Below the pieces are notes generated by a model, which saw nothing but the letters and a program-made list of their open reading frames with translations, had not been told where the DNA came from and made no database searches. DNA of 47,085 bases from Phoronis australis (taxonomy: Eukaryota; Animalia; Phoronida), in contig NMRA01000865.1 in the NCBI GenBank assembly GCA_002633005.1, positions 67,328 through 114,412 on the forward strand, read 5' to 3'. How positions within the stretch are numbered: the stretch's first letter is position 1; every line of letters begins with the position of its first letter. This document shows positions 1-46,488 of the stretch, piece after piece. Both the position numbers and the translations under genes were made by a program.

Positions 1-586
1 CCCCCCTAAATCCGCCTATGATACATATGGACAACAAAATTGTTGCAGCTACTCGTACTACAATGATAACACATTAGTAATAATTTTGAATTTGCCTTCC
101 GATTCAAAGCTCTTGATCATGGGGCGCCGTACCCGGCCAAGTGGTATTTGCGTAGATGACAGGATCGTTAAGACGATTAGGGAAGGCTTTATATTATGTT
201 ACTCATCGGCATTGATCACACATGGTGGTTGCACCGTAGGGAAACTAGGGAGTCTAGAACTAAGCTATTACAGAGGCGAGAGAGCTCCCAAAAAGTCACA
301 GTGGCGACCGTGACTAAGAAACAAATCAGCAGAAATAGGTTTGTTTTCTGATTTTGCTTGCTGGCTTACGGTAAAAGGCAGGCCTTTTCAAATTTGGAAT
401 TGAAAGTGTTCATCAAATACAGGTATGGTTTTCATCCAGTGTCCAATTCGATTGTGGATTGGTGGAATGATATGCATTCGTGTTCATTGTGTGCGTTTCC
501 GTCCTTTTAACTTCAGTAGAAGCCGATGGTAAGTTAACTATAGGCATCCCTCCGTCATTGCACAAACAAAAAAATTCAACTATGAC

Positions 587-3132: not shown

Positions 3133-3172
3133 GTGTGTGTGTGTGCGTGTGTGTGCGTGTGCGTGTGTGTGT
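3133..3172. repeat. (TG)n/(TGCG) microsatellite
   Basis: tgtgtgtgtgtgcgtgtgtgtgcgtgtgcgtgtgtgtg. Confidence 0.9.
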
Positions 3173-3407
3173 TTTGGTGTGGGTGAATGTTATTAGCCGA
3201 GATTGCTGTACCAAATAACTTTTTTCACGAGACCAGAGTTCTCTGCACAGTGCTGCAGAGAGGCGAGTTCCGTAACGCGAGTTTGGCGACTGAGACCACG
3301 CAACAACACCTGAAAGGCGCATCGCGAGTAAACTTGGGATTTTACTTGGGCGTACGCTCGCCAAAGGGCCGCCTGAAATTGATCGGTGAGTCTGGAATAT
3401 TGAGTTA

Positions 3408-4052
3408 GGTGGCACTGAATAGTTAGGCTGCGGCCCTACTCCCAAAATATTAAAATTTTGGGGTAGGCCAAGTTTGGGGGCATTTTGTAGGTGGGCATTG
3501 CATGTTGGCTCAGTGAATGTGGTTTGTTTGCATTTGTGAACATGCTGAGAATAAAAAGGCCACTTTCTCGGCTGCAGCTGCACTCTTCTTCAAGATGGTG
3601 GCCCCCGGTTGCAATTGTGCATTGCTGGGTAGCGACTGAGAAATTGGCCGCGATTTCAGCTAGCCCTCAAACAAGCCAGGTTTGCAAAAAAACTAGTTAG
3701 TTGACAGTACTTTTGGACCAAGTTCGGAATCTGTAGGAAATTTACTTTCAGAATCTATTGTTGGTTTTAGTCGTGCATCGGCAGGAATGTGGTGATTTTA
3801 GGGTGAAAAGTGCTGATTTTGCATTTTCTTGCCCTTATTTTTCTTAGTTCAGTTTGGTTTCCACTGGGAGTGAAAGGGTAAAAAATACAAGAGAGTACAA
3901 AGTTTCTATGCTCATCTGTAAGGCTTGTGATGTGAAATGACTCAAAACTTTTCTTTATTTGCATGCAGTTTTGACACAGTGAAAAAAGGGTAAAGAGTCC
4001 ATTGACGTGTGTTCTGATAGGCAAATCCCAATGAGAACTGTTCAGTGCCTCC
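3408..4052. mobile_element. PIF/Harbinger-like MITE with TTA TSD
   Basis: TTA|GGTGGCACTGAATAGTT ... AACTGTTCAGTGCCTCC|TTA. The paralogous empty site gagTTAtggaagaaaac near 15546 has a single TTA. Confidence 0.88.
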
Positions 4053-4186
4053 TTATGTAAGAAAACGTAAGTTAGCGGCACAGTGCTGCGAGCAGAAATA
4101 ATACTAAGAGAGAGTAGTCAAGTGCCATTTCCGTTTAAGCTGCCATGAAGATTTATCGCAGCAAGCGTTTTCCCGGCGTTACGAAA

Positions 4187-4746
4187 GGATTGTTCTAAGA
4201 TCTCCTCGACCCCCACACCCTCTACCCACGACCCACAGCCCCGATGACCCCCTCAACCCACCTCCTACAATACCCGAAGCCACGGGGTTCGGCTCTGTCA
4301 GGTTATCGACTCACCTTCGGTTTCGCTGGGTCTGGCTGGTATTAAGCAGTGGAGGATTTAAAGGAGGGCGGGGAGACCAAGGGTACCAAACAGAAAGCAA
4401 ATAACAAAAGTGTGAAATTATGTGTAAGTAACGTACTCTTTCCATAAGTTTGAACAAAGACGTTGATAGCCACTCCTGGAACTATTTCCGTGACAATTAA
4501 CAATAGTACACTTACAATCCGCCATTTCAGATCTCGTTCTTACGCCACTTGTCGTTTTTAACTACCAGCTTTGAGCCAAAGCAGGTTCGTGTAGTTAAGT
4601 CTTATGAGAAAATCATCCAGCGACTTAATAAGATCATATAATTTGTAAAAAGCCCAAAGGCGCCTCTATTGCCGCAGGTCGAGAGTGCTGTGGGTCGTGG
4701 GGGTCGTCGGGCGTGGGGTTCGCGGGGGGGGGGCTTAGAACAATCC
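4187..4746. mobile_element. MITE with TIR GGATTGTTCTAAG and C-rich/G-rich subterminal repeats (superfamily unassigned)
   Basis: GGATTGTTCTAAG ... CTTAGAACAATCC. Absent from the paralogous intron near 15690. Confidence 0.85.
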
Positions 4747-4888
4747 GCACGGAACGTGTCTCTATTTCAACTCATCATCCATTATCACCGTTAGCATTAC
4801 TGTTTAATTAAAAGCCCATTTTGAGTGAAACAACACTCATCATACGTGAAATCCACTTGTAATTTGTACACAATGTTTATCTTTTCAG

Positions 4889-5039
4889 TGTTGACTGTGT
4901 TGACGTGGGAAAAGACGGGATACTCTTCCGTGGCAGGTATTATACTGTGCAAAAGAGTTCTAAAGGATTTTATATGGAAGGTTTCAAAATGAAGAGCAAA
5001 AAAGTGGATTATTTAGTTTGCGACTGTATACCAGTTTAA
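4889..5039 (+). CDS. Last exon of paralogous cystine-knot gene copy A (upstream exons not found in the window; may be a pseudogene)
   Basis: Acceptor atcttttcag|T. Same length (151 nt) and phase as 15834..15984. Encodes VDCVDVGKDGILFRGRYYTVQKSSKGFYMEGFKMKSKKVDYLVCDCIPV*, 29/49 aa identical to copy B, with one knot Cys changed to Tyr. Flanking intron and 3' UTR (about 3197..5250) align with about 15340..16180. AATAAA near 5186. Confidence 0.7.
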
Positions 5040-6409: not shown

Positions 6410-6870
6410 TTAAAATACCAACTGTACATTTGGCGTACGATTCGTTGACGCGAGAACCTAACTGAACGAAAGATTTTGCGAGATATTGCCGCTGATGGTA
6501 CTACAAATGAAGCACACGATCACATCAGTGTCCTTCGCTAGATTCTTGCGTTTACAGAGTTCCATTCGTGTCTCACCCACAGGCGTCCTCAGCTTCTGAT
6601 CGTCTCCAGAACAATATATATATAAATACTACAAGGTGTGACACTCGGGACAAGGAATTCCACAGGTGATTCACTTCAGCCGTCCATATCAAACACAAGA
6701 CTCGATAAATTTACACAAAACAGGGTTTCAGCCAACCATTAGCAATTGTTCTTTCTTCTAATACCATTCACGGTGTCCTGCTCCAGCGAGATCGCAACAA
6801 ATTCGCGGTAAAAGCACATAAATGTTCTAAAAAAAGCCCACGCATCAGTCCTCCCTTGACGGTTCGTTGA

Positions 6871-7011
6871 AGGTAAGAGGACGGTACGGAATTATCAGTT
6901 ACTAATGGCCGGTTCATCACAGAAGGTTACTAAATTGTCTGGATAAGCGTGGAGTTATCGATGTCGTGACACTCCGTGACAAATCCGCAATTGCCGTACC
7001 GTTCTTGACCT
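6871..7011. mobile_element. Small inverted-repeat element abutting the copy B promoter
   Basis: AGGTAAGAGGACGGTACGGAATT ... AATTGCCGTACCGTTCTTGACCT. Confidence 0.6.
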
Positions 7012-7373
7012 CATCCAAGTTCGTGAAGGCGAAAACGCTCAAGCGTAGTGAAATGACCCATACATAACAGTGTCACTGTAAACTGAGCAGTGGGTGTTTC
7101 TTAGCTCACACGTAACTAAAGTAAATCTTACATGTGACAGAGATACTACTGGAACACCTGCTGGACGTTTAAGATATGTGAATGAACCTATTCGCAGAAT
7201 TGACCTAAACCAATCCCAAAAATGAAAAAACTAACGTACCTCATTTAGTTAGCGTAACTTGCTGTAAAAATAGAAAACGTTCATCCAGTCACGTAGACTT
7301 GTTTGTGACCATTTTAAATAGTTTGAGAAACAACAAATTGTCTCAGTGTTCGAGCCATCTTGAGTGACAAATC
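7011..7373 (+). promoter_or_regulatory. Putative proximal promoter and 5' UTR of copy B
   Basis: Conserved with 43581..43976. TATA-like TTTAAATA at 7313..7320 (TATAAATA at 43914..43921 in copy C) about 55-60 nt before the ATG. Shared motifs TCACGT and GTTAGCRTAAC. Confidence 0.5.
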
Positions 7374-7394
7374 ATGTTTTTGTGGACTGTTTTG
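7374..7394 (+). CDS. Exon 1 (MFLWTVL) of a secreted neurotrophin/Spaetzle-like cystine-knot precursor, copy B
   Basis: aaatcATGTTTTTGTGGACTGTTTTG|gtaagt has a perfect donor at 7395, phase 0. It joins 8009 in frame to give the signal-peptide-like MFLWTVLVTVIFARNAFS-QN. ATG and donor are conserved in the paralogous block at 43977..43997. Confidence 0.75.
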
Positions 7395-8008
7395 GTAAGT
7401 TTCTTATAACACCACAATACTGTTTGGAGTAAGGATGTTATATATTGTTGACATAAAGTGGGGGAAAAAGTATTCAAAGGAGCAGTAAAAAATAACTAAA
7501 TCACATAGCCATTGTCCCAGACAAATTGATCGTTTTCTACAATCGGTATCATTATAAGTCTCGTGTTAAGTATAAACAGAAGGAATGCTAATAATATGTC
7601 AAGTGTGGATGTCTTCAACCCCAAACGCCTCTTGCGGCTCAGCAAAAAATAATTTAACTTAAATCAGCAGTAGCGCAGAAAAGAACCCATGAATTCGGCT
7701 TGAATAACTGTTGCGCCAGGTCCCAAAGCAGTGCATAGCATAGTAGCATAGTATTTTTAAAATATATTTTGTTAAAAACGCTGGCCTTTATTTTAAAGAA
7801 TGGCTAGCAGACAACTGCGAGATTTGGCGATTTGTAACAAATCAAAAGCAACGAATGTTGTTTTATAGCTGTGGTCAAAGTTGAAAACTTAAAGAAGCAT
7901 GTCCCAACCAACAGTTATACTCAGACTGCATTTTTTTCGGCCGTAAAACCGATAACGCCTCTTTGACCGTTTTATTTTTTATCTAAACTCCATGTACTTT
8001 CTGTATAG

Positions 8009-8430
8009 GTAACGGTGATTTTCGCCAGAAATGCCTTCTCCCAGAATACTATATTTACAAGTAGGCCAACGACGACAGCCTACCCAGACACTACCACAAA
8101 AGAAAAGACGAGTGAGTCAACGACTACAGCCTACCCAGACACTACCACAAAAGCAAGGACCAGTGAGTCAACGACGACAGCCTACCCAGACACTACCACA
8201 AAAGCAAGGACCAGTGAGCCAACGACGACAGCTTACCTAGATACTACCACCGAAGCTATGACGAGTGAGCCAACGACGACAGCCACTACCATATACACTA
8301 CCAGAAAAGCAATAAAGCGTAAACGATGTAAAGATCGCAAGATGAAAAAAATAACACAGATCCCCGGAGAAAATGGTTCTTTTATAAAGCTATTGGTACC
8401 ATTTCAACCATACAAGTGCTCGTGCAACAG
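8009..8430 (+). CDS. Exon 2 of copy B: end of signal peptide, Thr-rich mucin-like repeats, KRKR, first half of the cystine knot
   Basis: Acceptor ctttctgtatag|GTA. Open frame VTVIFARNAFSQ...(TTTAYPDTTTKARTSES)x4...RKAIKRKRCKDRKMKKITQIPGENGSFIKLLVPFQPYKCSCN. Donor AG|gtaagt at 8431, phase 2. Confidence 0.85.
8069..8284 (+). repeat. Coding 51-bp tandem repeat (17 aa, TTTAYPDTTTKARTSES), four full units plus a partial one
   Basis: Units start at 8069, 8120, 8171, 8222 and 8273, in frame within exon 2. Confidence 0.95.
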
Positions 8431-8919
8431 GTAAGTAATAACTTTTTGTTGTTATACGCCCACCTATACACATGTGGATGCATCATTGTCATCTCTGTTA
8501 GGGAGTCCATTATCAACACTTGATAATCAAGTCAGTGCACTCATCGCCAGAAATTTGTAACATTCTTGATCATCTAGGTGACGCTTAGCGCCATAACCCC
8601 AACCAATCATAAGAACGCATGGTTAGTTAAAAGTCAGGAAGCTTGGGCAACAGTATCGTAATTGTGAGCTTAAAGTGTTAGACCGGGATCCCATAGCTTT
8701 TTGGACATGAAAAGGTAACCAATTTTCTTTTGTGCCATAGTGCTCTATGGATATCCTCATGTTTCGAAATGGCAGTCTGGCAGGTTTGCTCTGGTGGGAG
8801 TGGTCAGGGGAGCCAAGAAAACGACACTTGAATATTGAGCAAGATCAATGTTTCTGGTAATCACTTAAAACTGCCGTCGATACCTACATGTACTACGTCA
8901 ATCCACTGTATCAAAATTG

Positions 8920-10040
8920 GTCACTGCCAGACAATTTAAGTATCAGCCAGACGGTTATAAACAGAGTAAAAATTGAGTTGAGGATTCCAAGAGGTAACTG
9001 CATGAAACCAGTTGCAAAATATTCACCATAAACCAACGTATCACGCCGAATAAACGATGTCAGACAAATTTAGCGGTGTATAAAAGACACGCCCAAATAA
9101 TTATTTTCGAGTTGAGCTGGATCAACCCACCAGGTATCCGTCTGAACCTAATTGCTCGATGTTCAGCATCACTTCACATGACATAACAGCTAGATGCCAG
9201 TGGTGGGTTGCCCCTGCAGACGATTATTAAAAGGTTTAAAATTTCAGCTAGAACAACCAAAGAGGTAACCGCATAAAACCAGTTGCAAAAGATTCATTGT
9301 AAGCCCAGGAATCAGTCATGGATAAACACTGCCATACAAATCTAATAGTGGGGTAGCCCTGCCAGACACGCACAAATACCTGAGATCAGCTAGATGAACC
9401 TTACAGGTAACCGTTCGATACCAATTGCACGATGTTCATCATCACAGTACATGGCACAACAGTAAGATGCCAGAAAATTTCGGCAGTGGGGTGCCAGTGG
9501 CGGGTTTGGGGGAGGGATAAGAGGGCCATGGCCCTTCTAAAATTCTCCCAGATTCCATTTGGCAGTTCGGGATGCGAATTGCTGACTAGCATATGCGTGC
9601 ACCCAGGGGGGTTCGGGGGGCAAATACACAATGCATAGGCCTTAAGTAAACCTCGTTTGTTTGTTTGTAATAAGTTACAGAAGCCCAAACATTCGAGACC
9701 TCCTACATCCCTACACTTTAGGCTGAGTGCACGCACGAGGCGAAATTCTGGTTATTCCTGTACCCTGGTCCCCCCTAACTCAAAATCCTGGATCCGCCCC
9801 TGAGTGCCCCTGCCAGACAATTACAAAAACAGCTAAATCAACCCAAGAGGTAACCGAATGAAAACAGTTGCAAAATATTCTACTTAAGACCATGTATCGT
9901 GAATAAACAGTGCAAGAGAAGTCTAGTGTTGAATTAGAAGCTCCTCACGACGGAATATCTGACTCTGAGTTGAGCTAGAATTACCCGCCAGGTAAGTGTT
10001 TGAAACCATTTGCATGATGTCCACCAACACTTCGCCTGCA
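8920..10040. repeat. Degenerate satellite-like array: about 270-bp unit of two related ~135-bp subunits, about 3 units, interrupted by a MITE
   Basis: The anchor AAGAGGTAAC..CAGTTGCAAAA recurs near 8990, 9260 and 9846. The alternate subunit GCTRGA..CAGGTA..TTGC.CGATGT recurs near 9132, 9405 and 9990. Confidence 0.75.
9495..9802. mobile_element. hAT-like MITE (near-5-bp TSD GGTGC/AGTGC) with a nested MITE at 9592..9737
   Basis: CAGTGGCGGGTTTGG ... CCTGGATCCGCCCCTG interrupts a satellite unit. The inner TATGCGTGCACCCAG ... CTGAGTGCACGCACG is related to 28156..28342. Confidence 0.75.
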
Positions 10041-10224
10041 ACAAAAGGTAACTTATTAGTAGTGAGTAACGTCATTGTCGATCGAGGAACAGATAAACTC
10101 AAGCGCTTGTGACAGCAACCACGCCACCTTCGGCTTCGGAACCTCCGATTTCTGCTAAGTCGTCTGCCGCACCTAGTTTCTACGGTGGCTGTAAAAGGAC
10201 GGCACGGCAACTTTTTCTCCGTTG

Positions 10225-10722
10225 CTAACTCTATCGATAGACTTACTTATTCTATAGATAGATTTAGTATCTCTATCGATAGACTTATTAAATCTATCGA
10301 TAGACTTACTAACTCTATCGATAGACTTAATAACTCTATCGATAGACTTACTATCTCTATCGATAGACTTAATAACTCTATCGATAGACTTACTAATTCT
10401 ATCGATAGACTTACTAACTCTAGCGATAGACTTACTAACTCTATCGACAAACTTACTAACTCTATCGATAGACTTAGTATCTCTATCGATAGAATTACTA
10501 TCTCTATCGATAGACTTAATAACTCTATCGATAGACTTACTATCTCTATCGATAGACTTAATAACTATATCGGTAGACTTACTAATTCTAGCGATAGACT
10601 TACTAACTCTATCGACAAACTTACTAAATCTATCGATAGACTTAGTATCTCTATCGATAGAATTACTATCTCTATCGATAGACTTAATAACTACATGTAT
10701 ATCGATAGACTTATAACTCTAT
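10225..10722. repeat. 21-bp tandem array (CTCTATCGATAGACTTACTAA), about 23-24 units, each with the palindrome TCTATCGATAGA
   Basis: Directly visible. It produces the heptad ORFs IDRLTNS (+) and SIELVSL (-). Confidence 0.97.
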
Positions 10723-10737
10723 CGGTTTCAAATTAAA

Positions 10738-11180
10738 ATGGAGGACCAAAAGAAGCATATTGTCGATTTATTGAAGCTAGGACTGACCCTAAATGAAATA
10801 ACAGATGCACTCATGCGCCGTTTTGGAGTGTCACTAAGCACAAGGCAATTGCGACGTGTTTTGGCGTCTTACGGACTACCGTGCCGTAAAAGCCTGTCTG
10901 AATTTGATGTAGTGGTTCGTTTTGTTGAAGAACAAGTCGCGGGTTCAGGTCAGATGCACGGTTACAGATTTATGCATCAGAAGTGCGTAACAAATGGTTT
11001 AAATGTACCACGAGAGACAATTCGGCAGTTGTTATCTGTCATTGATCCCTCTGGTGTAGAAGCTACACGTTGTAAACGGCTAGTTCGGAGGAGGTATGGA
11101 GTCCGCGGTCCGAATGTCGTTTGGCACATGGGCTCTAACGACAAGTAAAAGCCATATGGAATTTGTATCCATTTCTGTAT
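10738..11180 (+). pseudogene. Truncated integrase-core (DDE) transposase
   Basis: The usual WHxDGxDKLKPYGxxIHGxID motif reads WHMGSNDK*KPYGICIHFCI, so the first catalytic Asp is lost and there is an in-frame TAA. Similarity ends near 11185. Confidence 0.8.
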
Positions 11181-11569
11181 TCAAGGCAATCCCTTTTCGT
11201 TGTATGGACTCTTCTCTCATGACCAGTTCCTATCACCAGAACATTTTAATTTAATTCTAATCTGTCTATTGTCAGTTACTCATTGCTTATCCCATTCTCC
11301 CTTGAGGTCTTATAATAAATAATTGCTCACGACGAATTCAAATAGTTACTTCCGATGCTACACTGTGTGTTTATACATTCAATTTTCATACCAGATGTGA
11401 ATGTTTGCAGTGAAACGTAAATAGTATTTATTCAATATTTATTTAGAAAAAAATAAAACACTTAAATCCAGTAACTCCATATCACTCAATACAAACAAGT
11501 CTCATAAATTATCAACACTGTCGAACTGGCGCTGCACACAACCTGATTGCACCTGTGATAAATACGCAG

Positions 11570-13270
<1,701 letters not shown>

Positions 13271-13886
13271 CACATCAACAATTCAGCAGTCCGGGCCTCA
13301 ACAGTTGCGAGTCGCCGATTTTACCACTACACCACTCAGCGGCTGACGTCATCGCATGTGAAAATAGAATACTTAAATGAGCACGCGCAACAATCGCATG
13401 TTCAGCAAAGGGCATTGCACCGACATTTATACGCTATGAAAAATAAGACGCATAATTTCCATAAAACGATATTTTAATTCAGTGAAATTTTTCTCTCGTG
13501 TTCTCTCACTTGTAAATCACCGATCTCCAATTTGAATGCAGGTGCCGTGTGGTCGGGATCCTTTCACTTGAGACTTATAGTCAGTTACCATTGGTAACCT
13601 ACTTTAGCAGACGATATATTCCCGGTCGAAGCTTAGCGTGATAAAATGTGTAGTAAACTATAATAATTGCTAAACCTTAATTTATAGATTCACTTTTTTC
13701 TATTTTGTTTTATTTTTCAATTGGTTTTGAGTAAAAGCATTATTTTACAAAAATATCTTGGCTTTTCTTAAAAGGTCACGACCTCCGACCCAGGGCTACT
13801 GACATAGAAAGTAGTTGCAAAGCCGAGGCGAGTCGAGAAAGGTAGATCGATTCATTGCAATGTTTCTTGTTCAGTACGTGGTATAA

Positions 13887-14041
13887 ATAGGTTATTACAT
13901 GTTTTCAGTCGTTATCCCCCTTATCTAGAGCCCTCGTGGATTTTGTAAAGTTATCACCCTCTGGGCTAACGCCCCTCGGGAGATAATTCCACTCGGGCTC
14001 TAAAGAACGGGGGATAACGACTTCGCCATGTAATAATCTAT
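13887..14041. mobile_element. Palindromic element resembling non-autonomous Crypton-type repeats
   Basis: TAGGTTATTACATG..GTCGTTATCCCC..AGAGCCC / GGGCTCT..GGGGATAACGAC..CATGTAATAATCTA around a central CCCTCTGGGCTAACGCCCCTCGGG. No clear TSD. Confidence 0.6.
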
Positions 14042-14067
14042 ACATATTTCTCACGGGAGTTTGCCTT

Positions 14068-14230
14068 TTTTGCGCTCGACTAAAAAGAAAAAACGGGATG
14101 TTTCATGAGTTTGTTGCGGTCCCCGCAATTTCCCTTTCAACTCTAAAACAATAACTACAAAAACGCTTTTGGGAAATTTTTTGGTGTTGCATCCTCCGTT
14201 CGACAAAAAACGCTGTCGGAACGTCTTTGT
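14068..14230 (+). repeat. Dispersed repeat related to about 33455..33590
   Basis: Shared TCGACTAAAAA..AAACG..GTTTCATGAGTTT and CGTTCGACAAAAAA. Confidence 0.65.
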
Positions 14231-15833
14231 GTGTTGCAGTGAACATTTCACCCTTTCATTTTAGCGTAGATCCAGATGTCCCACTTTTTAACCTGAAGTC
14301 GCGCTTTTCAATTCACTTGTTCCGTTTTTTGTTCTTAAATGTTGACCATGACAACTATGCAGCAGGTGTTCAGAATGGTCTCTTTAATGAATATCGTTAT
14401 TGTCCAGAGTCCACTTTCTTTAGTAACAATAATTGTAAAAGTGTGTTTCAATGTCTCTTATTTACGGTAACATATACCGGGTACTACATATATCAGGATC
14501 ATTAACTTTCACAATCTGAAGAAGAGTTTACTTGTAAACTTTTACATAAAGTCATGCACTACAACCAGTGTCATGAGCTATCCACAGTGCATTTCAAAGC
14601 TACGGGAGATAAGTTTGCCCATTTTCTAGCTACCAGAAAACCTTAATCTGCAAATTTCGTATAGGTATTTGAAGTAGTTTATCACATTTTTCGAAAATAT
14701 AGCTGGGTTTTGAATTTTTTACTGAATAATTGTATCGAGCGGCACCAAAAGTCCAATTTATTATAATGTATAAAGATGTATAATTTTGAATGAATGCCTG
14801 ACTAAATTATCTACAGCAAATTCGAGGGATTCATATTCTAAGACCTTTGTCTTTATAGGGTAGAAATTTTTGAATCATTGAAATTATTTCCCTAATGGCT
14901 TAACTAGTCATTTGTATAAATTCTCTGGTTCTTTTCCTTTTTCATTTTACTATTACACGCTGTTGTTTTTCTCATTTTGGTAACACTCTTGGTTTTTAGA
15001 ATAAAAAAGTACTTTTTAACCAGTCATGATAATTACTTATCACTTTAATTATTTATATTTTGCTTCTGGTGCGGTCATCAAGAAATGAAAAGAAAAATGC
15101 TTTCTAATGATATGACTCTTATGTAATACGGTTGAAAAACGGCGGAGTTGGTAAAAGTTTTAAAGACAGTAAATTCCACACCGGAACAAACGAATGCAAA
15201 CAATCGTTCTCACGCACGAGTGGCGCAACGTCAGTGGCCGCGAGATTGGAGTTGGTATTCCAGGGCTAGAGTTCCATGACTCGAACACAAAACAAAAATA
15301 TATTAAACTGTACGTGTTTTTGTATGGTTGAAAGCTAGTTCTCGAGTTAGCTGTGCCTAGTATTTTTACAAGGCCATTGGTCTCTGCACAATGCTGCACA
15401 GAGGTACGTTCCATAACGAGTTTCTTGTGAGTTGATGAGACCACATGACATCACCAGAAATGCGCTTCCCGAGTAAACTTGCGATCTCACCTAAACGTCC
15501 ACTCGCCAAATAGCCGCCTGAAATTGATCAGCGAGGCTGGAGTTTGAGTTATGGAAGAAAACTTAAAATAGCGGCACTATTATATTTTAGCACCCCACAG
15601 TGCTGCGAACAGAGTTAGTACTGAGAGAGAGTAGACACTACATCCATTCAAGCCGCCAAGATTTATCGCTGCAAGCGTTTTGCCGATGCTACGGAACGTG
15701 TGTTTTCAACTTAGGATCCTTTATCACCGTGCGCATGGTCGTTTCATTAAAAGCCCAGTTTGAGGGAAACGACACTCTTTAAATGTGAAATCCACTTGTT
15801 TAATTGTCATTTGTACATGTTTTGTCTTTACAG

Positions 15834-15984
15834 TGTTGACTGCGTTGAATTGGGGAATGGCGGGACACTCTACCGTGGCAGATGTAATACTGTGCAAAAG
15901 ATTTTTGATGGTCTTTACATGGAGGATTCCAAAATGAAGACCGTAAAAGTGAAAGTAACTGTTTGCGACTGTGAACCAGTTTAA
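15834..15984 (+). CDS. Exon 3 (last) of copy B: second half of the cystine knot
   Basis: Acceptor ttttgtctttacag|T, phase 2, matches the 8430 donor (AG+T = Ser). Encodes VDCVELGNGGTLYRGRCNTVQKIFDGLYMEDSKMKTVKVKVTVCDCEPV*, with the terminal CxC typical of cystine knots. Total CDS 21+422+151 = 594 nt. Confidence 0.8.
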
Positions 15985-18900
15985 GACGGATAAGACTGCA
16001 GAAAACAGGGGCGAATAGATATGATTTGACAATGGCAAAGGACTTGACCTTCCTCCGTCAAAACTGTTGATACTGCTGAGGGTATATCGATGAAACCAAG
16101 AAACAATTTATCATCGGAATTAAGTTATTATATGAAAACACAAGTGACTGAGACATTTATTCATTTATACCTGAATGATGCAATTGATGAAATTTGGACT
16201 CACAAACTGTAGATTTTAAAAACGTTTTAAAAAATCCTTAAATAAATGAAATTAAACTCATTGCTTGGAAAGGTTGTCTTTGCACTTCCATGGTGTTTTT
16301 AAAATCCAATAGTTTTGAGTTTTGTTCTTCAAAACTGAATTGATTGCTTGCCCTGATTTGCGTGCACGTCATGACTGACGTACCCACGTTAAAAATAAGA
16401 TGTAACCATGCAGTAGGCTCGCACAGAATCTCAGTGATCCACGGGAGCTGAATTTGAACTCCAGGCGTTCACGAAGTGTGTACATTTTTGGAACACAGTA
16501 TCCTTTTCCCCAGCCACCAGAAACTGGACGACTAGTCGTGTTTCAGCTAGGGATTTTGAAACAGACCCAAAAGGCATTATACCATGGACTTCGGTACCTC
16601 ACCTTCTCAAAAAACTCCTTTAAAGAATAACCACAATGAAATAAAGTTTTCCCGAAACTGGATCACAATAAAACGAATCATGGCATTAGAGCGAGCGCAG
16701 ATTGCCTCTCAAGTGAATCACAGGTGAGCTGACCAGCAACTAGCTTTAGTTCATCGGGAATTTCGTATTTTCACACTGTTATATTTCGGCTAGAGCTACT
16801 TTTGAGACAGCTCCTCGCTACCGGTCTGTGCACTGGTTCTAAACCCAAACTTTCTCTCCATGTTGCCTGGTTACTCAACTTTTGATGGCTGCATCCCCGG
16901 GATTGTTCCAGGGACGAATCCAGGATTTTGAGTTGGGGTTGGGGCCAGGGCATATTATTAGCCAGGGTGATGAGTTATTTGGTGAAGTCGAAATGGTTTG
17001 TGCACCCCAATAATTTTTGCCTTCCTGCGGGCCTGCTTCATAGCCTCCTTTGCCCCTTAGTGCCCGGTTAAATGAAACAGTCACAAATAGGGACTCAACC
17101 AAGTTTCCTAAATCTAATGCATATTTTTGGACTTGTGAAAACATTTACTGTTTTGGAACAGTAATGAATCGCTGTTTTTTCATACGCCCAGAAATAACTT
17201 TATAAGAAGAAGTGCAAGAATTACGCAAAAGTCATAACGCCGATCCATTGAGTTTGGTGATGTAAAGGGGGTTGTCAGGTCACCGTCAACACTAGCCAGG
17301 CTTTGGCGAACCGATGAAAGATTGCCGGATCATCGTGTTACTCGGCATGAGGGATAGAACTCTCGATCAGCTGGATCGACCAAGTATTGCTCGATACTGT
17401 GACTAAGGCGTAAGGGAAAACTTTCAGTAGATCCTCCACGCTAATTCCTTATCTCTGTGATTGTTTGGTCAAATTAGTTAGAAACACAACACATAACTAA
17501 ATGTGAACATGAAGTAGGTTCAACATTGCCACATGTTTTTAAACGAGCATGCCACCCAAAAAACAACCTAATTTGTATCAATTTACATGTAGATCGAGTA
17601 GTTCTACTCCATAAGGGCACGTACAGTTGCGTTACCTGACACCTGACGGCAGACGGAGGTGTTGAAATTATCCAATGACGTAATTGGTTTCACACGCAGT
17701 CTGTTCAGCAGTTCACAACACGGGTTACTGGTGTCAGCTTATTGCTTGAATTAATCGTTTAACACCAATGAATCGTCAAACTTCGATGTAAAACCCTTAA
17801 AAATACACCGAGTTCTTATAAAAACGTGTTATTTTATTTCGCTCTTACGGATTTATTGGTGTTTGGACACAGCATAGACTACAAAGTTCGGCAGGCTAAT
17901 AAGGTCCGTAGCAGGAGTATGGGGTCTGTTCGGAGATAAATTCTAAGTATTTTCCTTAAGATACAGACTGGAGAACCTAGATCTGTGTTGTTTAGGCTTG
18001 TTATTATTTGAGTTCTGAACACACAAAACGATTGTTATCCCGGCCAGTGGCTCAGAAGCCGATCCGTCAGACATCACGGACATAAATCATCCAAAGTTGG
18101 AAACTAAATTTCCAATCAAGAAATACTAGTGAGCCAAAGAAGTAAAGTGCACGTGAGTAGTTGGTGAATTAGCCATGAAACTGCAAATCTACTTACTCGT
18201 CGGGGGTCGCGAAGTCAGGTTCCGCTTTGCCTCAGAACCGTCACGGGTACATTGACGATCATTATTTGAATAATGTAAAATAATGTAAATAAAGATTTCC
18301 CTAACGCCTGGCCGTGGGATAGAAATCGAGTTGTTTCACAACAGTTTCTGTCAGCAAACACTGAATTAGCATGAGCTCGTCACGGCCTCGGTGTCTCGTC
18401 AATTAGTTTTATTACACATAAAGCCGTTAACACAGTGATTTATTCATTGCTGGCTTCTCAAATCATTTGCACTCACAAACACTCCAAAGGCGTTCCAAAT
18501 TGTATCTAATGAGGCAGACTTTGTTTCAGTTTCATATAAGTATTGGTATAACGGTGAGAATAATTCATTTTGAAACAGAACGCTCAGTACTAAACGTCAA
18601 CACCAGACGGCAACTCGCAATCCCGCCCTTAGACGAGCTCATCCCAACGAAGACTTCGCAGGTGGATCGTTAAGTTTCACAGGCTATCAGTTCGAACAGG
18701 AATAAAGTGATGAAGTAATACTAGAGAGGCGCCGTGAACAAGCTCAGACAACGGAACGTATGGATAGTTATTTGGTAAGCCGGCATTCGTCAGGCACTGT
18801 TCCGCGACGACTGCAGGCCACAGACACGGAGATGTTTCACGGCCTCATACTTGCTATTTACAGCGTACTTTTAATTTTTCACTACAGCGAGCCACTTCCT

Positions 18901-20391: not shown

Positions 20392-23377
20392 CTCCAGCAG
20401 TCGATCAGCTGTGAAGTTAGAACAACGGCAAACATTATCTGGCCCAAATATTAATCAGCTGATCTCAAATTACCAGCATTTATAGGTCGAAACATACTAT
20501 GTAAAATCGGGACAACCAATCACAGCACTAGTCATTCTCCATTTTCTCACATGACATGGAATGTGTTACGACACGACTGGTTGATAACACCGAGTACGTA
20601 TTTTTTATATTACATGGGAAAATCACAAAGTAGTGCAAAGTAGAAATCCATACGCCTCACATTTTGTTGTCTGCAAAACACTAAAACAACCAAACGCGCG
20701 CCAACCAAATAATGCTGGAATTCCGAGGTGACAAGGTCATCATTGACAAATCCGTTGTCGTAACTATACGTACTCTCAGTCGAAAAGATATGCAAATAAC
20801 TTTTTAAACCGACCCATCTTCGGTGGCGAATTCTATATCCACTTTCATTCAAACGGAGACGAGCCCTCAACTCAAGAAACGCGGCAGGCTGTCTAGCTGT
20901 GCTGACTCAAGGTCATTCATTGCTCAAGCGCGGGATTTAAATATTTTTTAAGTTTTAATGTTAAAACTTCAAAGACTATTTATTACATTTTAACTTGAAT
21001 ATTTACTACCAAAGCTGAATGCAATTTACAATTGTTAAGCTTAGAATAAACCTACTGACAAAAAATTAACTGAATTGCGTGCGTGTTTTTACAAAAGTTG
21101 CGTTTTGTGGTCGAATGGTTTAGACACGTAGTTTTTCAGCATGTGAGAAAGCAAATCCTACACTCGTCTCGGCAAGCCTCGGGATTTTTACGAAATTTCC
21201 GAGAGGTTTTGCCCATGTCATCAACCTGAGTCTCGTGTAGGATTCTCTATAATATTTAGTGTGAAAAGTCGTAAACTATTGCTGCTCGTTTTCCCGTGCT
21301 CACACTCATGTCCGTGGAGCTGAGAAACTTTTCATGCATTTTATGGTTGTTAGGATATTGAATTCACAATTGTAATAAACAGTCCTTTAAAAGAAGATTT
21401 ATGTGATGCGGAATATGTAGACACTTGTCAAAACAAGGTAAATTGCGGTTTTAAGCACTTGAAATAATCAAAGAAATATATGTACGCCCAAAACAATCAA
21501 TTTACACCGTTAAGAACTACTTTACGCCGCGAATAATTAATCAAACGTCAATTTGCAGTTTAAAAGTTACTTTGCGCCGTTAACAATAATTAATTTACTC
21601 TCGTAATTTACGTTCGTAACGTTCACCCATTTCGCCATCGATACATACAGGCCGCATAACCGTTTTATATTAATGGTCCAATAACTCATGATCCTGCTGC
21701 AGCTTGGGCGGTAGAAAAACGTCAACGGTCCTTTACCGTTCAGACCGCACAGTCTTGAGCAAATCGCGTTTCCTTGCTCTGAAAAAACACCGACGAACAC
21801 GTTCACATTTTTGGAGAAAAGTAGATCTAAACCCAACAAAAACTTCGGTCAATTGAGATAGACTTCTCTTATCAATATTGTCAATAGTGCACAGCCTCAC
21901 ACATTTTATACGAGCGAGCAACTAACCTGTTGGAAAAGATTTCCAATGTTAGGTGTCACAATTCCGAAGGTTCGATACTCTGAAGGTCCATTACTCCAAA
22001 GATTTGCCACCTTCGAAAGTTCACTACTTCGAATGTCCACAATTCCAAAACCAGAACTCGGACAGTTATTTTCTTCTTAAATATAAGCATAGCTCCAGCA
22101 GTCGATCAGCTGTGAAGTTAGAACACCTACAAACACTATCTGGCGAAATATTAATCAACTGATCTCAAATTACCAGCATTTATACGGGTCGAAACATACT
22201 ATGTAAAATCGGGACAACCAATCACAGCTTTAGTCATTCTCCATTTTCTCAAAGTAGTGCAAAGTAGAAATCCATTCGCCTTACATCTTGTCGCCGGCAA
22301 AACACTAAAACAATCGAACGCGCGCCAACCAAACAATGCCGGAATTCCGAGGGGACAAGGTCATGATTGACAAATCGGTTGCCGTAAATATACGTACTCC
22401 CAGTCGAAAAGACATGCAAATAACTTTTTAAACGGACCCATCTTCGGTGGCGAATTCTATATCAACTTTCATTCAAACGGAGACGATCCCTCAACTCAAG
22501 AAACGTGGCGAGACTGTCTAGCTGTGCTGACTCAAGGTCAATTCATTGCTCAAACTCGGGATGCCTTGCTGACTGTTATTTGCTGACTGTTAAAATAAAC
22601 CTATTAACAAAAAGTTAACTGAATTGCGTGCGTGTTTTTACAAAAGGTGCGTCTTTTGGTCGAATGATTTAGACACGTAGTTTATCAGCAAAAAAGACCA
22701 TTTGCCGTTCATGTGAGAAAACAAATCCTACGCTCGTCTCGGCAAGCCTCGGGATTTTGACGAAATTTCCGAGAGGTTTTGCCCATGTCATGAACCTGAG
22801 ACTCGTGTAGGATTCTCTATGATGTTTAGTGTGAAAAGTCGTTAAATATTGCTGCTCGTTTTCCCGTGGTCACACTCATGTCCGTGGAGCTGAGAAACTT
22901 TCAACTGAAATCCCTTTTCCTGCATTTTCTGGTTGTTAGAATATTGAATTCACAATTGTAATAAATAGTCTTTAAAAGAAAATTCATGTGATGCGGACAA
23001 TGCAGACACTTGTCAAAACAAGGTAAATTGCGGTTTTAAGCACCTTAAATAATTAAAGAAATTTTTGTACGCCCCAAACAATCAATCTACACCGTTAAAA
23101 TCTACTTTACGCCGTTAATGATTAATTTAATTTACGCTATGAATAATTAATTAAACGTCAATTTGCAGTTTAAAAGTTACTTTACGCCGTTAACAATAAT
23201 TAATTTACTTTCATAATTTACGTGCGTAACGTTCACCCATTTCGCCATCTATACATACAGTACAGGCCGCATAAACGTTTTATATTATGGTCCAATAACG
23301 CATGATCCTGCTGCAGGTTGAGCGGTAGAAAAACGTCAAAGGTCCTTTACCGTTCATACGGCACAGTCTTGAGCAAA
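20392..23377 (+). repeat. Local direct duplication: 20392..21763 and 22093..23377, separated by a ~330-bp spacer
   Basis: Both copies start CTCCAGCAGTCGATCAGCTGTGAAGTTAGAACA and end GCACAGTCTTGAGCAAA. High identity by eye with several indels. Confidence 0.95.
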
Positions 23378-25169: not shown

Positions 25170-27075
25170 GTGACCATATTTGTGCAAATTTGGGTATGAG
25201 TCACGCCACCAGCAAAAATTTTTATCGTAATCTATTTTGCCCGGGGTACGCCACGAGCTATGTTGCAGAGTAAAACAAGAGTAGGATTGCGAATATTGTC
25301 ATTTATTATGACGTAAATAGATAAAACTAACTAAGACTCTGCAAGATGGGCATGGACAAAACGCCATAATAGCAGCACGGGAATGCTGACATCGCCCATC
25401 CGAGGAAGCGGAACCCGGGAAATAACAAGGTTAGACTATGATAATATAGGTACTAATAACGGTATAACAGAAAACTTGAATACAAAAGTCTAGAATATAA
25501 AAAACAAGAACATAACACACTGGAAGTAAAGGTAAATAGAACTAATGACTAGAAATTGAAGCCTGCAACTACAGACCGTGGGCCGCACGCTGCTACAACA
25601 GACCTGCGAACGTGAGCAGGCCGGCTGCAACAACAGACCTGACCTAGGGGGCTGAAACCACAGACCCAGAGGAGTGGGAGGGGCTGAAAAGCAAAGTGAG
25701 AGAAATGGGGAGCTGCAACAACAGGCTCACCAGGGGTTCAGGAAGCCTGGGGAAGAGGGAAAAGCAGACATGCGAATGTATTTTTTAGTGCGTCAGAATT
25801 CCAGCGCCCCATGCGCTGGATCACCGGTTCAGGGACGCCACGGCTGACCGCTGAGGTGGCGGCGCCAATGCGAAAGCTATGAGACGTATAAGGCTTGGTG
25901 TCGAGTCCTACAAAGGAAACCACTTTAGTTAACATGGACTTGAAGCAGGAACGTGTAACCGGTGATCCACTGAGGTGTTGGAACAAGGGGCCAGGAGAGG
26001 GCTGAAAAGTAGACAAGTACAAGGTTAGGGCAGCTACTGGGAAATGGGGAGATTGGCTGGACGGAGTTGTAAGTGAGACTGGTCCCGAGCTGTGCTTGAA
26101 GGTACGCATAGTGATGACCACAGAATCGCCAGAGGGGGGAAGACGACGTCGCTGACCTGTATGACGTGGGAGGAGAGCGAGGAGATGACTGTGAATTCAT
26201 CGACCCTGAGCAAAGCATGGAAGGCTAGGAGGAACATAGCACGTGCGAGAACCGAGTCGGCAAAAGAGCCGAGTGCAGAAGGGCAGGCGTCAAACAAGCG
26301 GTGGAGCAAAGCGGAAGTAATGGGCATGCGTGTGTCAGAAGAAGGGCGCAGATTGGAAGTGCCTTCGAGGAGTTTTTTTGATGAAAAAGGAGGAAGTGGG
26401 GTCAGGGAGGTTGTCAAGCTTGTGGACAAAACTAATGGCAGAGACATAGGACTGAATAGACGAGCTACTACGGCCAGATTCGAAGAGACGGAAGATGTAG
26501 TGGGCCAGGAAAGAGGTATTAATGGGCAAGGAGAGCGGAGAGTTGTTAGAGAAGAGGTGAAACTGTGCGAGGTTATGCAGGATGCGGGTGTAGGAATGAA
26601 GAGTGGAGGGGGCCAGGGAAGCCCGGGGCAGTCTGGTCACTCTGTCAGGAGGTGCGGCGAGAACGGTGTCGGATGAGGGCCGAGCCAAGAACCCTGGGAA
26701 AAGGCGACCTGAAAGTTGAAACAAGAAAGTGCATCAGCGATGGTGTTAGTGTAGCCGGGGATATGTTTTAACCGAAAATGAACGCTAAAGGTAAGAGAGG
26801 AGATGACCAGACGACGAACAAGAGACATAATAGGGGCGTGGCGGGAGGAGGTCTTGTTGATAATATCAACGCCGGCACGGTTGTCGCACAGGAAGAGGAT
26901 CTTGTGGTTGGCGAGCTTTGAACCCCACAGCTCTAGCGCTATGACGAGAGGAATGAGTTCCTTGAAGGTGATGTGATGGCGTTGCAGGTGCTCGGGCCAC
27001 GGACAGACAAACCAGGAAGCTCCCAATGTCGCAGCAAAACCCCCATTGTAACCCGCAGCATCAGAGTACAGTTTG
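25170..27075 (-). mobile_element. 5'-truncated DIRS/Ngaro-type tyrosine-recombinase retrotransposon (RNase H + YR, frameshifted)
   Basis: RNase H motifs LYSDAAG, ITFKELIPLVIALELWG, CDN, HIPGYTNTIADALS (27075..26640). Overlapping YR: SLAPSTLHSY, AFHALLRVDEF, HSFRIGAATSA, RMGRWNSDA (26640..25770), broken by three frameshifts. The 3' non-coding boundary is approximate. Confidence 0.9.
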
Positions 27076-27184
27076 ATGGCGTCTGTGAAAATTTGGCATG
27101 TCCAAAAACAATTTCTATTTCGTTTTCATTTTACACAAGCATAAAAAACCGACATCATATACAAACTGTGTAGAATTATAACTT

Positions 27185-36302: not shown

Positions 36303-37487
36303 ATGGCAATGGAAGTGTGGATAACAAAAGTCCTGGTCCTGTGTGCGCTCTTCGTTGTTACGTTCGGCTTCAGCTTGATACCCGTCAAGTTCATAAGCGT
36401 CATAAAAAACACAACCGACAGCAACAAGCAGCATAGATATCATACAGCAATCAGTTTTTGCTCATGTTTCGCGGGTGGCGTGTTTCTTGCTACCTGTTTT
36501 CTTGATTTGTTTCCCCATGTGCGAGAGCAAGTCAATGAAGCATTTGATCAGTACCAAGTGGTGACGTCATTCCCGTTTGCGGAATTCGTAATGGTATTTG
36601 GACTGTTCCTAATATTACTCATTGAACAACTCGTCTTATACGCGAAAGAACACCAGGGCAGTGGTGAAGCAGAGAAGGAACCCTTATTGCCAAGTGCGAG
36701 TAGAGCGTCCTCAAGAAAGAGTTCCATTGCATCATTATCGTATCAGTCTGACCGCGCTCTCTCCGTTGGAATCTGTGATCGACCAATCATACACCAGGAG
36801 AAACCTTCACGCCCGGTCTCTCCTGACTTAGATCAAGATTTAACTCTAGCCGAATCCAACTTAGACGTTGTGATCTCAGAGGAACACCACCGCGGTCACC
36901 ATGTCCACGGACACCATGACCACGGGCACAGCCATTTACATGATGACTTCTCAGTTCATGCAGATCTGAGTTCTCACTCGGTTATCCGATCTATGTTGCT
37001 TCTGTTGGCCCTGTCATTCCATTCTGTCTTTGAAGGACTTGCTCTTGGACTCCAAAAAACGACAGAAGGTGTTGTTAATATTTTTACCGCTCTGGTCATC
37101 CATAAAGCAATCTTGGCTTTTAGCTTAGGCATCAATTTAGTGCAGAGCCGACTTAGTTTTTGGGCAACCATTCGGTCAAACGTCTTATTTGCTGTTACTT
37201 CTCCCATAGGGATAGGAATTGGCATATTAGTTCTAGACGCAGCTAATTCAAAATCAACCAACTTGGCTAGTGGTATATTACAAGGTATTGCCTGCGGAAC
37301 TTTTCTCTATGTTACGTTTTTTGAGGTCCTACCTCATGAGTTTAATAACGAGGAGCACAGGCTCCTCAAAGTTCTGTTTTTAGTCGTAGGCTTCGGTATT
37401 ATGGTAGGTATTATGTTTATACATTCTGAAACGAATGACGAGCCGCATCATCACGTCATTAATACCAAAACTACTGTTGGTTTCTAA
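36303..37487 (+). CDS. ZIP-family (SLC39A1/2/3-like, subfamily II) zinc transporter, 394 aa, single coding exon
   Basis: FAGGVFLATCFLDLFPH, FPFAEF, His-rich loop HHRGHHVHGHHDHGHSH, TM4 LSFHSVFEGLALG, TM5 HKAILAF, GTFLYVTFFEVLPHE. A likely 5'-UTR splice acceptor ctttgcatttcag ends at 36251. Confidence 0.96.
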   Translation: MAMEVWITKVLVLCALFVVTFGFSLIPVKFISVIKNTTDSNKQHRYHTAISFCSCFAGGVFLATCFLDLFPHVREQVNEAFDQYQVVTSFPFAEFVMVFGLFLILLIEQLVLYAKEHQGSGEAEKEPLLPSASRASSRKSSIASLSYQSDRALSVGICDRPIIHQEKPSRPVSPDLDQDLTLAESNLDVVISEEHHRGHHVHGHHDHGHSHLHDDFSVHADLSSHSVIRSMLLLLALSFHSVFEGLALGLQKTTEGVVNIFTALVIHKAILAFSLGINLVQSRLSFWATIRSNVLFAVTSPIGIGIGILVLDAANSKSTNLASGILQGIACGTFLYVTFFEVLPHEFNNEEHRLLKVLFLVVGFGIMVGIMFIHSETNDEPHHHVINTKTTVGF

Positions 37488-43580: not shown

Positions 43581-43976
43581 TCATCCAAGTTAGTGAAGGA
43601 GGAAACGCTCAAGCGTAGTAAAAACACCCCCATACAGCACGGTGCACTGCAAACGAAGGAACATTTTGTGTTGCTTTGCTCACACGTAACTCAAGTAAGC
43701 CTTACATTCTAATGGAGTGAGAGAGAAACTATTAGGACACCAATTTGGAACATTTAGTGTAGTATGAGACATATGAAGTCAAATGTGCGGAATTGACTAA
43801 AACCACCTCCGCAAATAGGTGACGTAACGTACCTTATCCAGTTAGCATAACTTACTGTAAAAATAAAAAAAACGTTTCAACCAATCACGTCCCGTCATTG
43901 TTTGCGTGTTCATTATAAATAGCTTGAGAAATAATACATTGCGTCTCCGTGATCGAGTCGTCTTTGGTGGCAAATC
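43581..43976 (+). promoter_or_regulatory. Putative proximal promoter and 5' UTR of copy C
   Basis: Collinear with 7011..7373. TATAAATA at 43914..43921 and CCAATCACGT at 43881..43890. Confidence 0.5.
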
Positions 43977-43997
43977 ATGTTCGTGTGGGCAATATTG
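43977..43997 (+). CDS. Exon 1 (MFVWAIL) of paralogous cystine-knot gene copy C; the rest presumably lies beyond the window
   Basis: aaatcATGTTCGTGTGGGCAATATTG|gtaagt lies within a block (about 43581..44430) collinear with about 7011..7735. No exon-2 homologue is seen before 47085. Confidence 0.65.
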
Positions 43998-44177
43998 GTA
44001 AGTTTGTGATAACACAGTAATACTTTTTGCAGTTGGAATGGTATTAATCGTTGTAACAAAGTGAGGAAGATTTTCAAAGGAGAAGTCAAAAACAACTAAA
44101 ATAAAAAACAGCCAATGTCCCAGCCAGATTGAACGTTTTCTATAATCGGTATCATCAAAAGCTTCATTATAAGTATA

Positions 44178-44266
44178 TTTATTTATTATTTTATTTTTTA
44201 TTTATTGTTATATTTAAAATGAGGGTGACCTCTTCAGTGACAGTACTGCTTTCCCAGAGGGCCCTC
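44178..44266 (-). mobile_element. Extremely 5'-truncated LINE/SINE 3' tail in intron 1 of copy C
   Basis: Minus strand GAGGGCCCTCTGGGAAAGCAG...GGTCACCCTC followed by an (AATA)-rich tail. Absent from the paralogous position near 7575. Confidence 0.65.
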
Positions 44267-44367
44267 AAAACATATGGAATGCTAATATATTTAGTGTGGA
44301 TGCCTTCAAGCCGAAATGCATCTTGCTGCTCAACGAGAAAATTTAACAGTTCTACATAAATCAGCAG

Positions 44368-44423
44368 TAGCGCGGAATCGAACCCATGAACTCTGCATTA
44401 GTAGCCGTTGAGCTAGGTCCCAA
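44368..44423 (-). other. tRNA-derived (SINE-head-like) sequence with A and B boxes; degenerate paralogue at about 7670..7727
   Basis: Minus strand GGGACCTAGCTCAACGG...GGGTTCGATTCCGCGC. No complete cloverleaf. Other tRNA-like heads occur on the minus strand at about 13290..13345 and 33980..34045. Confidence 0.55.
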
Positions 44424-45218
44424 TGCAGTAACGATCCTAAATACTTAAAATCTCAGTTTCCAACCATTCAGAGTATGGGTCGCTGGAAGTCCGACGATCT
44501 CAGGAACTGCATTGGTCTCCCATCCCTACACTTCCCGTTACTAACGTTAACATTCACACGTTACCTTAACCCTCCGTCTCTCATATGAGCAGCTATATTG
44601 CCAGTGCTCAACTTTATCACACTTTTTCTCATCAACAGGGCAACTCTTTTGCCCGTGTACAGTTCCACTCACAAACTTCACCTTTCATCAAAGGGCCAGT
44701 GTGCATCTCAATACCTATTTTCATGTCATGGGCAACTGTGTTGGCAGCGTTCAGTGTCACCCACCAACATTTTCTGTATTGACTGTCCTTTTCACTCACC
44801 AACATTTTCCACTCTAGGGCACCTGACAGTGTATTGCCAGTATCTTGTTTCACTCATCCCGATTTTGAATCATAAGACCAACTATATTGCCAGTGTCCAG
44901 GCTACTTTTCATCACCGCTCTACCTCTAAACTTCTCACTCCGGGACAATTATCGATCTCAGTCTTTGTTACACGTGTTGTTGGTTAACTTCCTAGTCTAT
45001 CGATTGTAATTCTCTCCATGTTAAAAGTTTTACCATGGATTCTAGATGTTTCCATTTAACATTACCTCAGTTCGATGTTTCCTTGTCTGTAAGTATTTCT
45101 GAGTACACGGATAATTATTTCTGTATGCATGTTTTTACTTATGTGGCATACAGTGTAAGTCGCCTTATGTATATTCCTTGCTTATTACCACTCCTTGTTA
45201 GTTTTGTAGTCCTCTTAA

Positions 45219-46488
45219 AGGCGAAGGCAACCTTTTTTCACGTCATTTTTAGCAAAAATAAGGTTCGTTGATTATCCCAGACATATTTTACACTTATTTA
45301 CTGCTTTTCGTAATTTAATTAATTACTCGTCGTCTACTCCGGAAGTGACGTTTTGGGAGGCAAGAATTTCGCGCCAATTTCTTTTCATATAGTCTGACTC
45401 TGAGAGCAGTCGTGTCAGTCATTGTTCTACCTCGGTTGTGATAAGTTCGGTCGTCGTTTGCTTTTGCTTACGAGTCAGTCAACATGCCACGCTGTTGCTA
45501 CGTACTGGGGTGTACTCATTATCGTCTCACGTACAGAGGAAGAACTGTCCCACTTGCCCGAGTGTCCCGCGACACACTCCCACTGGAGGATGATCTGAGC
45601 ACAAAAACTGCTTACATCCCGCCGTGTGACTCCCGTGCCACACACCTGGCACCTTCCAAATAGCTCCAAAACAAGTCCACAATAAACTTATCAAACTTAG
45701 GCTCACCGATCTGTTCATTGGATGACGAACTGTCCTCTTCACTGGGTGTCGAACTGGGCCTGTATTCACTCCCACTACTCAACATCGCTGCAGGGCTGCT
45801 TACAGGCTCTGGGCTAGAGACAACAGCACAGGGCGAATCAATGCTAGTTCCCGGAATTGCACGCAATGGNTTCACTCCCACTACTCAACATCGCTGCAGG
45901 GCTGCTTACAGGCTCTGGGCTAGAGACAACAGCACAGGGCGAATCAATGCTAGTTCCCGGAATTGCACGCAATGGGGTACGTTCGGAGGCACGGGTAACA
46001 GTAGATGAAGTGCCTCCAGTCACTGTATATAGTGGCCACAGCTCGCGAGGCTTCTCGCTTCAAAAACGCACTCCTCAGGGTTGGTGACGGGGCACTGCCG
46101 GGAATCAACAGCAACTGTATGGTACCCTTCTTCAGGCGTTGTTTCGCAGGGACCTTCATCATTTCAGCGTACATATCTGTCATAATCTGACGGCAGAAAA
46201 TGCTTGCCACACATTCGGTAACCCTCCATTGCTTTGTACGTTGCGTAGACGGGTAACGCTGCATTCTTCTTCACATGAAAGAGCTAACCAAGTACGGCGA
46301 AGTGTGTCATCCTTCGGAAAGCGACGCAAGGTACCCAAAGCGCGTGTGAGACGATAATGAGTACATCCCGGCACACAGCAACAGCGTGGCAAGTTGACTG
46401 ACTTGTAAACAAAAGCAAACGACGACCGAACTTATCACAAACGAGGTAGACCAATGACTGATTCGACAGCTCTCACAGTCAGACTATA
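45219..46488 (-). mobile_element. Rearranged Kolobok-like THAP transposase remnant with a 143-bp inverted repeat
   Basis: Left end TTAA|AGGCGAAGGCAACC. Minus strand: PRCCCVPGC..RRFPKDDTLRRTW..CGKHF..RLKKGTI..RSAFLKRE..KFIV..ELFGRCQVCG..WECVAGHSGKWDSS, with frameshifts. No matching right terminus was found. Confidence 0.75.
45765..45975. other. Assembly-gap artefact: identical 105-bp sequence on both sides of a single N
   Basis: 45765..45869 is identical to 45871..45975, with N at 45870. Confidence 0.9.

Follow-up and report, generated by a model that had tools for sequence, protein, structure and literature searches.

Transcript data confirmed that the element at positions 7374 to 15984 (plus strand) of a 47,085-nucleotide stretch of the Phoronis australis genome (assembly GCA_002633005.1, contig NMRA01000865.1, positions 67,328 to 114,412; hereafter the window) is a real, spliced and transcribed gene. 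It is a member of a tandem gene family with three or more related copies, which an earlier note made from the sequence of the window had overlooked. The reading we prefer, with a probability of about 0.5, is that the gene belongs to an orphan, fast-evolving cystine-knot-like family and encodes a secreted cytokine-like ligand whose basic knot follows a stalk that is likely O-glycosylated.

The three-exon gene proposed in the earlier note was borne out by the reading frame, canonical splice sites and RNA at both junctions. The three exons sum to 594 nucleotides (nt), which give a single frame of 197 amino acids and a stop codon. The coding part of exon 1 (7374-7394) holds the start codon and the first seven residues of the predicted signal peptide. 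Exon 2 (8009-8430) encodes the remaining signal peptide, the Thr-rich stalk, a basic cluster, Cys114, the first predicted hairpin, Cys144 and Cys146, and the coding part of exon 3 (15834-15984) contributes Cys151, Cys165, the second predicted hairpin, the terminal Cys192-x-Cys194 and the stop. Both intron 1 (7395-8008; 614 nt, phase 0, GT..AG) and intron 2 (8431-15833; 7403 nt, phase 2) begin with GTAAGT and end with AG in a pyrimidine-rich acceptor. Ten strong acceptors were found in intron 2, three of which open an in-phase frame of at least 30 residues, and the C-x-C ending is obtained only from 15834. The 3' untranslated region (UTR; 15985-16256) carries candidate poly(A) signals at 16241 and 16251. 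Upstream of the start codon, a likely core promoter (7313-7347) comprises a TATA-like element at 7313, for which paralogue C has TATAAATA at 43914, and TCAGT at 7343, which we take to be an initiator. Intron 2 had been regarded as debris of transposable elements, and it does contain a 21-nt array at 10225-10724, a transposase-like remnant at 10717-11148 and, further on, an (AT)n tract at 11749-12065, but most of it is without classification. The array, on the plus strand, consists of 23.6 near-palindromic units and runs directly into the remnant, a helix-turn-helix/Clr5-like transposase-type frame (together 10225-11148).

Public RNA data from four runs (X1-X4) were mapped on positions 6600-8800 and 14300-17300, with about 18-19% of each raw-read run being read. 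Both of the predicted junctions were recovered. Three X3 reads with three different starts, and with 52 letters on the shorter side, cross 7394/8009; their listed coordinates, 7395->8011 with a single intervening letter, correspond to this junction with one substitution at 8010. For 8430/15834, a single X4 contig lying on 8193-8430 has a 27-letter loose end identical to 15834-15860, and the join is also visible from the exon 3 side; this is one contig from one run of guessed RNA status, and its 27 letters are below the 31-letter bar for bridging. Few sequences support the junctions, but these place them exactly. Furthermore, exon read depth ends at the predicted splice sites, and in X3 it begins in the 7340 bin, at the putative promoter. 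Most exon reads have their first mate on the minus strand, which corresponds to plus-strand RNA in most stranded libraries, and in the 3' UTR the contig reaches 16103 and the reads reach the 16118-16218 bin. Exons 2 and 3 have few reads in X1 and X3 and none in X2; the contig depth in X4 is 473-1106, a depth not to be taken as an expression level.

All three copies lie on the plus strand, and the outer exons 1 and 3 are each independently conserved in a paralogue. Exon 3 of paralogue A (4889-5039) has the same acceptor, frame and stop as the target, with 59% amino-acid and 77% DNA identity, and the two copies resemble each other in DNA from the last part of intron 2 up to and including the 3' UTR. 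Paralogue C (43581-44429) retains the promoter, the 21-nt exon 1 (43977-43997) with its donor and the start of intron 1, at 73-78% DNA identity. The missing exons, 1-2 of A and 2-3 of C, are outside the window or lost. A second family member is likely transcribed, because an X4 contig joining the target UTR at 16112 has upstream of it a 17-mer that occurs within the window only in the UTR of paralogue A. The non-coding DNA of the paralogues (7011-7732 vs 43581-44429; 15314-15833 vs 3169-4888) is 73-80% alike and thus about as similar as coding exon 3, which indicates little extra constraint on the coding part.

The predicted protein has the signal-peptide-like start that had been claimed for it: its first residues have a hydropathy of 2.0-2.7, and small residues occupy -3/-1 of residue 18, after which cleavage is predicted; the hydrophobic exon 1 is also kept in paralogue C. 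The following stalk (residues 19-106) is acidic and mucin-like, with 44 Ser/Thr in 88 residues and an isoelectric point (pI) of 4.9. Its Thr-rich character stands as the earlier note described it, but the 51-nt (17-residue) tandem repeat (8065-8312, plus strand) has 4.8 copies, not four. The basic cluster (residues 106-113) lacks R-x-x-R and contains the pairs K110-R111 and K112-R113. Its last residue, Arg113, is Pro in the abundant X4 transcript, which weakens the idea of a cleaved pro-domain; for the K110-R111 pair and Arg106 no change is listed in the transcripts. The C-terminal residues 114-197 contain seven cysteines (114, 144, 146, 151, 165, 192 and 194; spacings 29, 1, 4, 13, 26 and 1) instead of the six counted before. 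The domain is basic (pI about 9.5; 19 K/R in 91 residues) and has a single N-glycosylation sequon, at 129.

The C-terminal domain quite probably folds as a growth-factor-type cystine knot, judging from its cysteines and from predicted models of its halves. Six cysteines follow the knot order with a terminal C5-x-C6 (114, 144/146, 151, 165, 192 and 194), a loose pattern that 344 of 100,000 shuffles also show. Modelled separately, each half of the domain formed a single beta-hairpin, which the expected cysteines close, so that strand pairs between C1-C2 and C4-C5 are present in the predicted half-models. The earlier claim of a cystine knot agrees with this cysteine order and two-hairpin layout, whereas the structure searches described below did not add to it. 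Given a knot fold, a signalling ligand would be somewhat favoured over other functions.

By its sequence, the protein appears similar in architecture to the NGF/Spaetzle/Trunk/IL-17 group without belonging to any of the three families tested, namely neurotrophins, Spaetzle and IL-17. It shares with neurotrophins and Spaetzle (PF00243 and PF16077, the accessions given in the earlier note) a predicted signal peptide, a low-complexity N-terminal region, a basic cluster just before Cys1, the C-terminal six-Cys knot order without ring Gly, and an aromatic residue four before Cys4; the Cys3-Cys4 and Cys4-Cys5 spacings are near those of NGF. Unlike in these families, the extra Cys is beside Cys2 and not Cys5, and a mucin stalk of tandem repeats makes up the N-terminal region. 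Mucins likewise have a Thr-rich region followed by a terminal knot, and the terminal C-x-C is a further likeness. In the knots of TGF-beta, PDGF, glycoprotein hormones and CTCK domains, the conserved glycine lies between Cys2 and Cys3. Residues 144-151 of the target contain no Gly, and the target further differs from mucin, TGF-beta, PDGF and glycoprotein-hormone knots in its fewer cysteines and its length of only 197 residues. A conserved Gly in such knots is mentioned in PMC4079206. The target knot domain is about 83 residues long, compared with a core of about 120 in Platynereis NT (PMC4812194). With the invertebrate six-Cys IL-17 type T1A (PMC11087794), and probably with Trunk/PTTH, it shares the six-Cys knot order and the C-x-C-x4-C cluster, and the genes of this comparison group are also tandem, lineage-specific and fast-evolving; unlike IL-17, the target has a mucin stalk and no sequence match. 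The Cys pattern of molluscan CRNF (123 residues and 11 Cys; PMC3966541) also differs from that of the target.

The transcripts themselves vary. The X4 transcript differs from the window in 22 of 238 bases of exon 2, compared with 4 of 242 across exon 3 plus UTR (Fisher p = 2e-4). None of the 17 visible exon 2 differences alters a Cys. Eleven of them affect the basic cluster or the first finger, not the stalk, and the first-finger changes D116K, T123K, Q124K and S145R add positive charge. Three X3 reads carry an in-frame 48-nt insertion at the start of the stalk, consisting of two 24-nt units with N-x-T sequons. The transcript differences may represent alleles or a closer paralogue.

Several results weigh against a cytokine-like knot ligand. 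Searches of Pfam, PDB sequences and databases yielded no homologue outside the window, and the Pfam scan gave no profile match for either half of the domain. All scores in the fold searches of the half-models were at noise level, tied with the unrelated hairpin proteins serpin, Tudor and HU; the best Foldseek E-value was 1.6, and no knot protein was among the two rows matched by the exon 2 half-model. The weak rows of the fold searches include the second finger of IL-17A/F. The membership in neurotrophins or Spaetzle suggested by the earlier note did not hold, as the published hallmark residues are absent; the NGF look-alikes are real as local resemblance but fall short of family membership. 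According to PMC2772990, neurotrophins have a Cys3-Cys4 consensus and, at site 130 in the last strand, a conserved Trp (Tyr in amphioxus). The target does not match this consensus: it is two residues too long, only Leu and Tyr fit besides the two Cys, and five of the nine defined positions fail; the domain contains no Trp, and there is no aromatic residue in 181-196. In the same paper, Spaetzle has an aromatic residue (site 133) and a Pro (site 136) shortly before Cys5, neither of which is found in residues 181-191 when the sites are counted back from Cys5. Spaetzle also conserves a Pro at site 13, after Cys1, and a Gln at site 44, before Cys2; Pro126 and Gln140 of the target are candidates for these, in a register not fixed by alignment. 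IL-17 seems an equally good comparison, yet it also fails by its motifs: for motifs 1-3 in PMC4517768, compared by eye, only Cys and isolated residues agree, and the target lacks the D-P-N-R core, the I-L-V-L-R stretch and a G/A preceding C-x-C. Paralogue A has Tyr at the fourth knot Cys position, which parallels the loss of knot disulfides in IL-17 types T1B/C, T2 and T3 (PMC11087794). The ratio of non-synonymous to synonymous substitution rates (dN/dS) between paralogue A and the target is 0.94 over 49 codons and 0.70 over the first 37, and the 17 exon 2 differences (13 non-synonymous, 4 synonymous) give a corresponding polymorphism ratio (pN/pS) of 0.98. Such values, about 0.9 and 1.0, are as compatible with relaxed constraint as with diversifying selection and differ from those of conserved growth factors. 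The X4 contig depth could also hint at a bulk secretory product.

A secreted cytokine-like ligand, the reading we prefer, would work as follows. The protein would be secreted, its stalk O-glycosylated and its C-terminal knot formed by the bonds 114-165, 144-192 and 151-194. Cys146 would be spare for an inter-chain bond, giving a covalent dimer; alternatively, 146 would be knot Cys2 with 144 spare. The acidic glycan stalk may hold the basic knot soluble and masked, until optional proteolysis within the basic cluster 106-113 might release it towards polyanionic surfaces and a putative leucine-rich-repeat or fibronectin-type-III receptor for a cytokine-like signal. The earlier note had proposed a Trk/p75- or Toll-type receptor, which is a conjecture. 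Tandem expansion and rapid change fit immune-type knot ligands such as the sea-urchin IL-17 arrays and Daphnia Spz7/8 better than conserved neurotrophins.

The main rival, which we regard as tentative and clearly less probable, is a miniature secreted mucin or matrix protein, in which the Thr-rich stalk does the work and the knot only dimerises or anchors, as the C-terminal knot does in gel-forming mucins. Half of the mature chain being a Ser/Thr-rich repeat, the stalk insertion in the X3 reads as a mucin-typical length polymorphism, the variable putative cleavage motif, the pN/pS of about 1 and the high X4 contig depth all speak for it. However, the stalk is short with 88 residues, a second cross-linking domain is absent, and the listed changes concentrate in the basic cluster and first finger instead of the stalk. 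Moreover, mucin-type knots have Gly in the ring and more than seven cysteines, unlike the seven cysteines of the target with no Gly between Cys144 and Cys151.

The 6-fold higher divergence of exon 2 than of exon 3/UTR within the same run would also fit a protein with a role in gamete recognition or allorecognition, or as an antimicrobial effector, with a knot or another disulfide-rich beta fold diversified in an arms race. The cationic domain, whose first-finger changes raise the positive charge, the tandem copies and the expression restricted by sample point in the same direction. We nevertheless consider this explanation unlikely, as pN/pS is not above neutrality, the contrast between the exons may reflect a paralogue mosaic or gene conversion, and the source tissues of the runs are not given. 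It is very improbable that the window copy is a decaying or silent paralogue and that a close copy in another part of the genome is the source of the transcripts. Over exon 2 the transcripts match the target at only 91%, and the TATA-like element is degenerate in the target while it is intact in paralogue C; but the frame, the splice sites and all seven cysteines are intact, the exon 3/UTR contig is 98% identical to the target, and the 27 exon 3 letters of the junction contig fit the target and not paralogue A.

Elsewhere in the window, a zinc transporter of the ZIP family that lacks introns and has a His-rich loop (36303-37487, plus strand; Pfam E 2e-71) sits between the target gene and paralogue C. 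Its best matches are from nemerteans and other marine invertebrates at 47-48% full-length identity, and the protein collection contained no close relative. A tree of the query with 23 named and 8 unnamed of the 120 matches (32 rows) places it at an open fork (support 81/77) together with sequences from brachiopods, bryozoans, nemerteans, annelids and molluscs, and in no strongly supported small set, a placement that probably indicates a lophotrochozoan host. Broken frames at 25738-27125 (minus strand) resemble the RNase H and tyrosine-recombinase parts of what we take to be a DIRS-type retroelement (Pfam RVT_3, E 0.011, one frame). At 470-535 (plus strand), a signal-peptide-like stretch runs up to a GTAAGT donor, with an in-frame stop upstream and an ATG one base out of frame as judged by eye; it may be the first exon, now broken, of a different secreted protein. 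At 20392-23377 there are direct duplications, nested and 85-93% identical, in which 21766-22110 also matches 588-935; they suggest recent element insertions or local duplication. A perfect 106-nt duplication at 45765-45975 flanks the sole N of the window and is probably an assembly artefact at the gap.

If the gene were a miniature mucin, it would be of modest interest. As a putative cytokine-like ligand, it offers a specific candidate for testing and illustrates how a compact knot can be combined with a length-variable mucin stalk. Surveys would miss such a ligand, as a secreted knot family of this kind is too divergent for profiles, begins with a 21-nt exon and has its domain divided between exons. 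Trochozoans have an expanded set of Toll receptors (PMC8609888), and an early survey of three lophotrochozoan genomes, published in 2009, reported no Spaetzle, an absence called unproven there (PMC2772990). A speculative and rather doubtful extension is that the family represents a new, seventh branch of cystine-knot ligands, lophotrochozoan, tandemly expanded and hyper-polymorphic, with variable-length mucin stalks and with its variation on a receptor-facing first finger; it might then be a Spaetzle-equivalent for the expanded Toll (or IL-17R/Torso-type) receptors, or a self/non-self signal. The gene is a member of a previously unrecognised, polymorphic family with a probable cystine knot on a mucin stalk, and as such a lead for the evolution of invertebrate cytokines.

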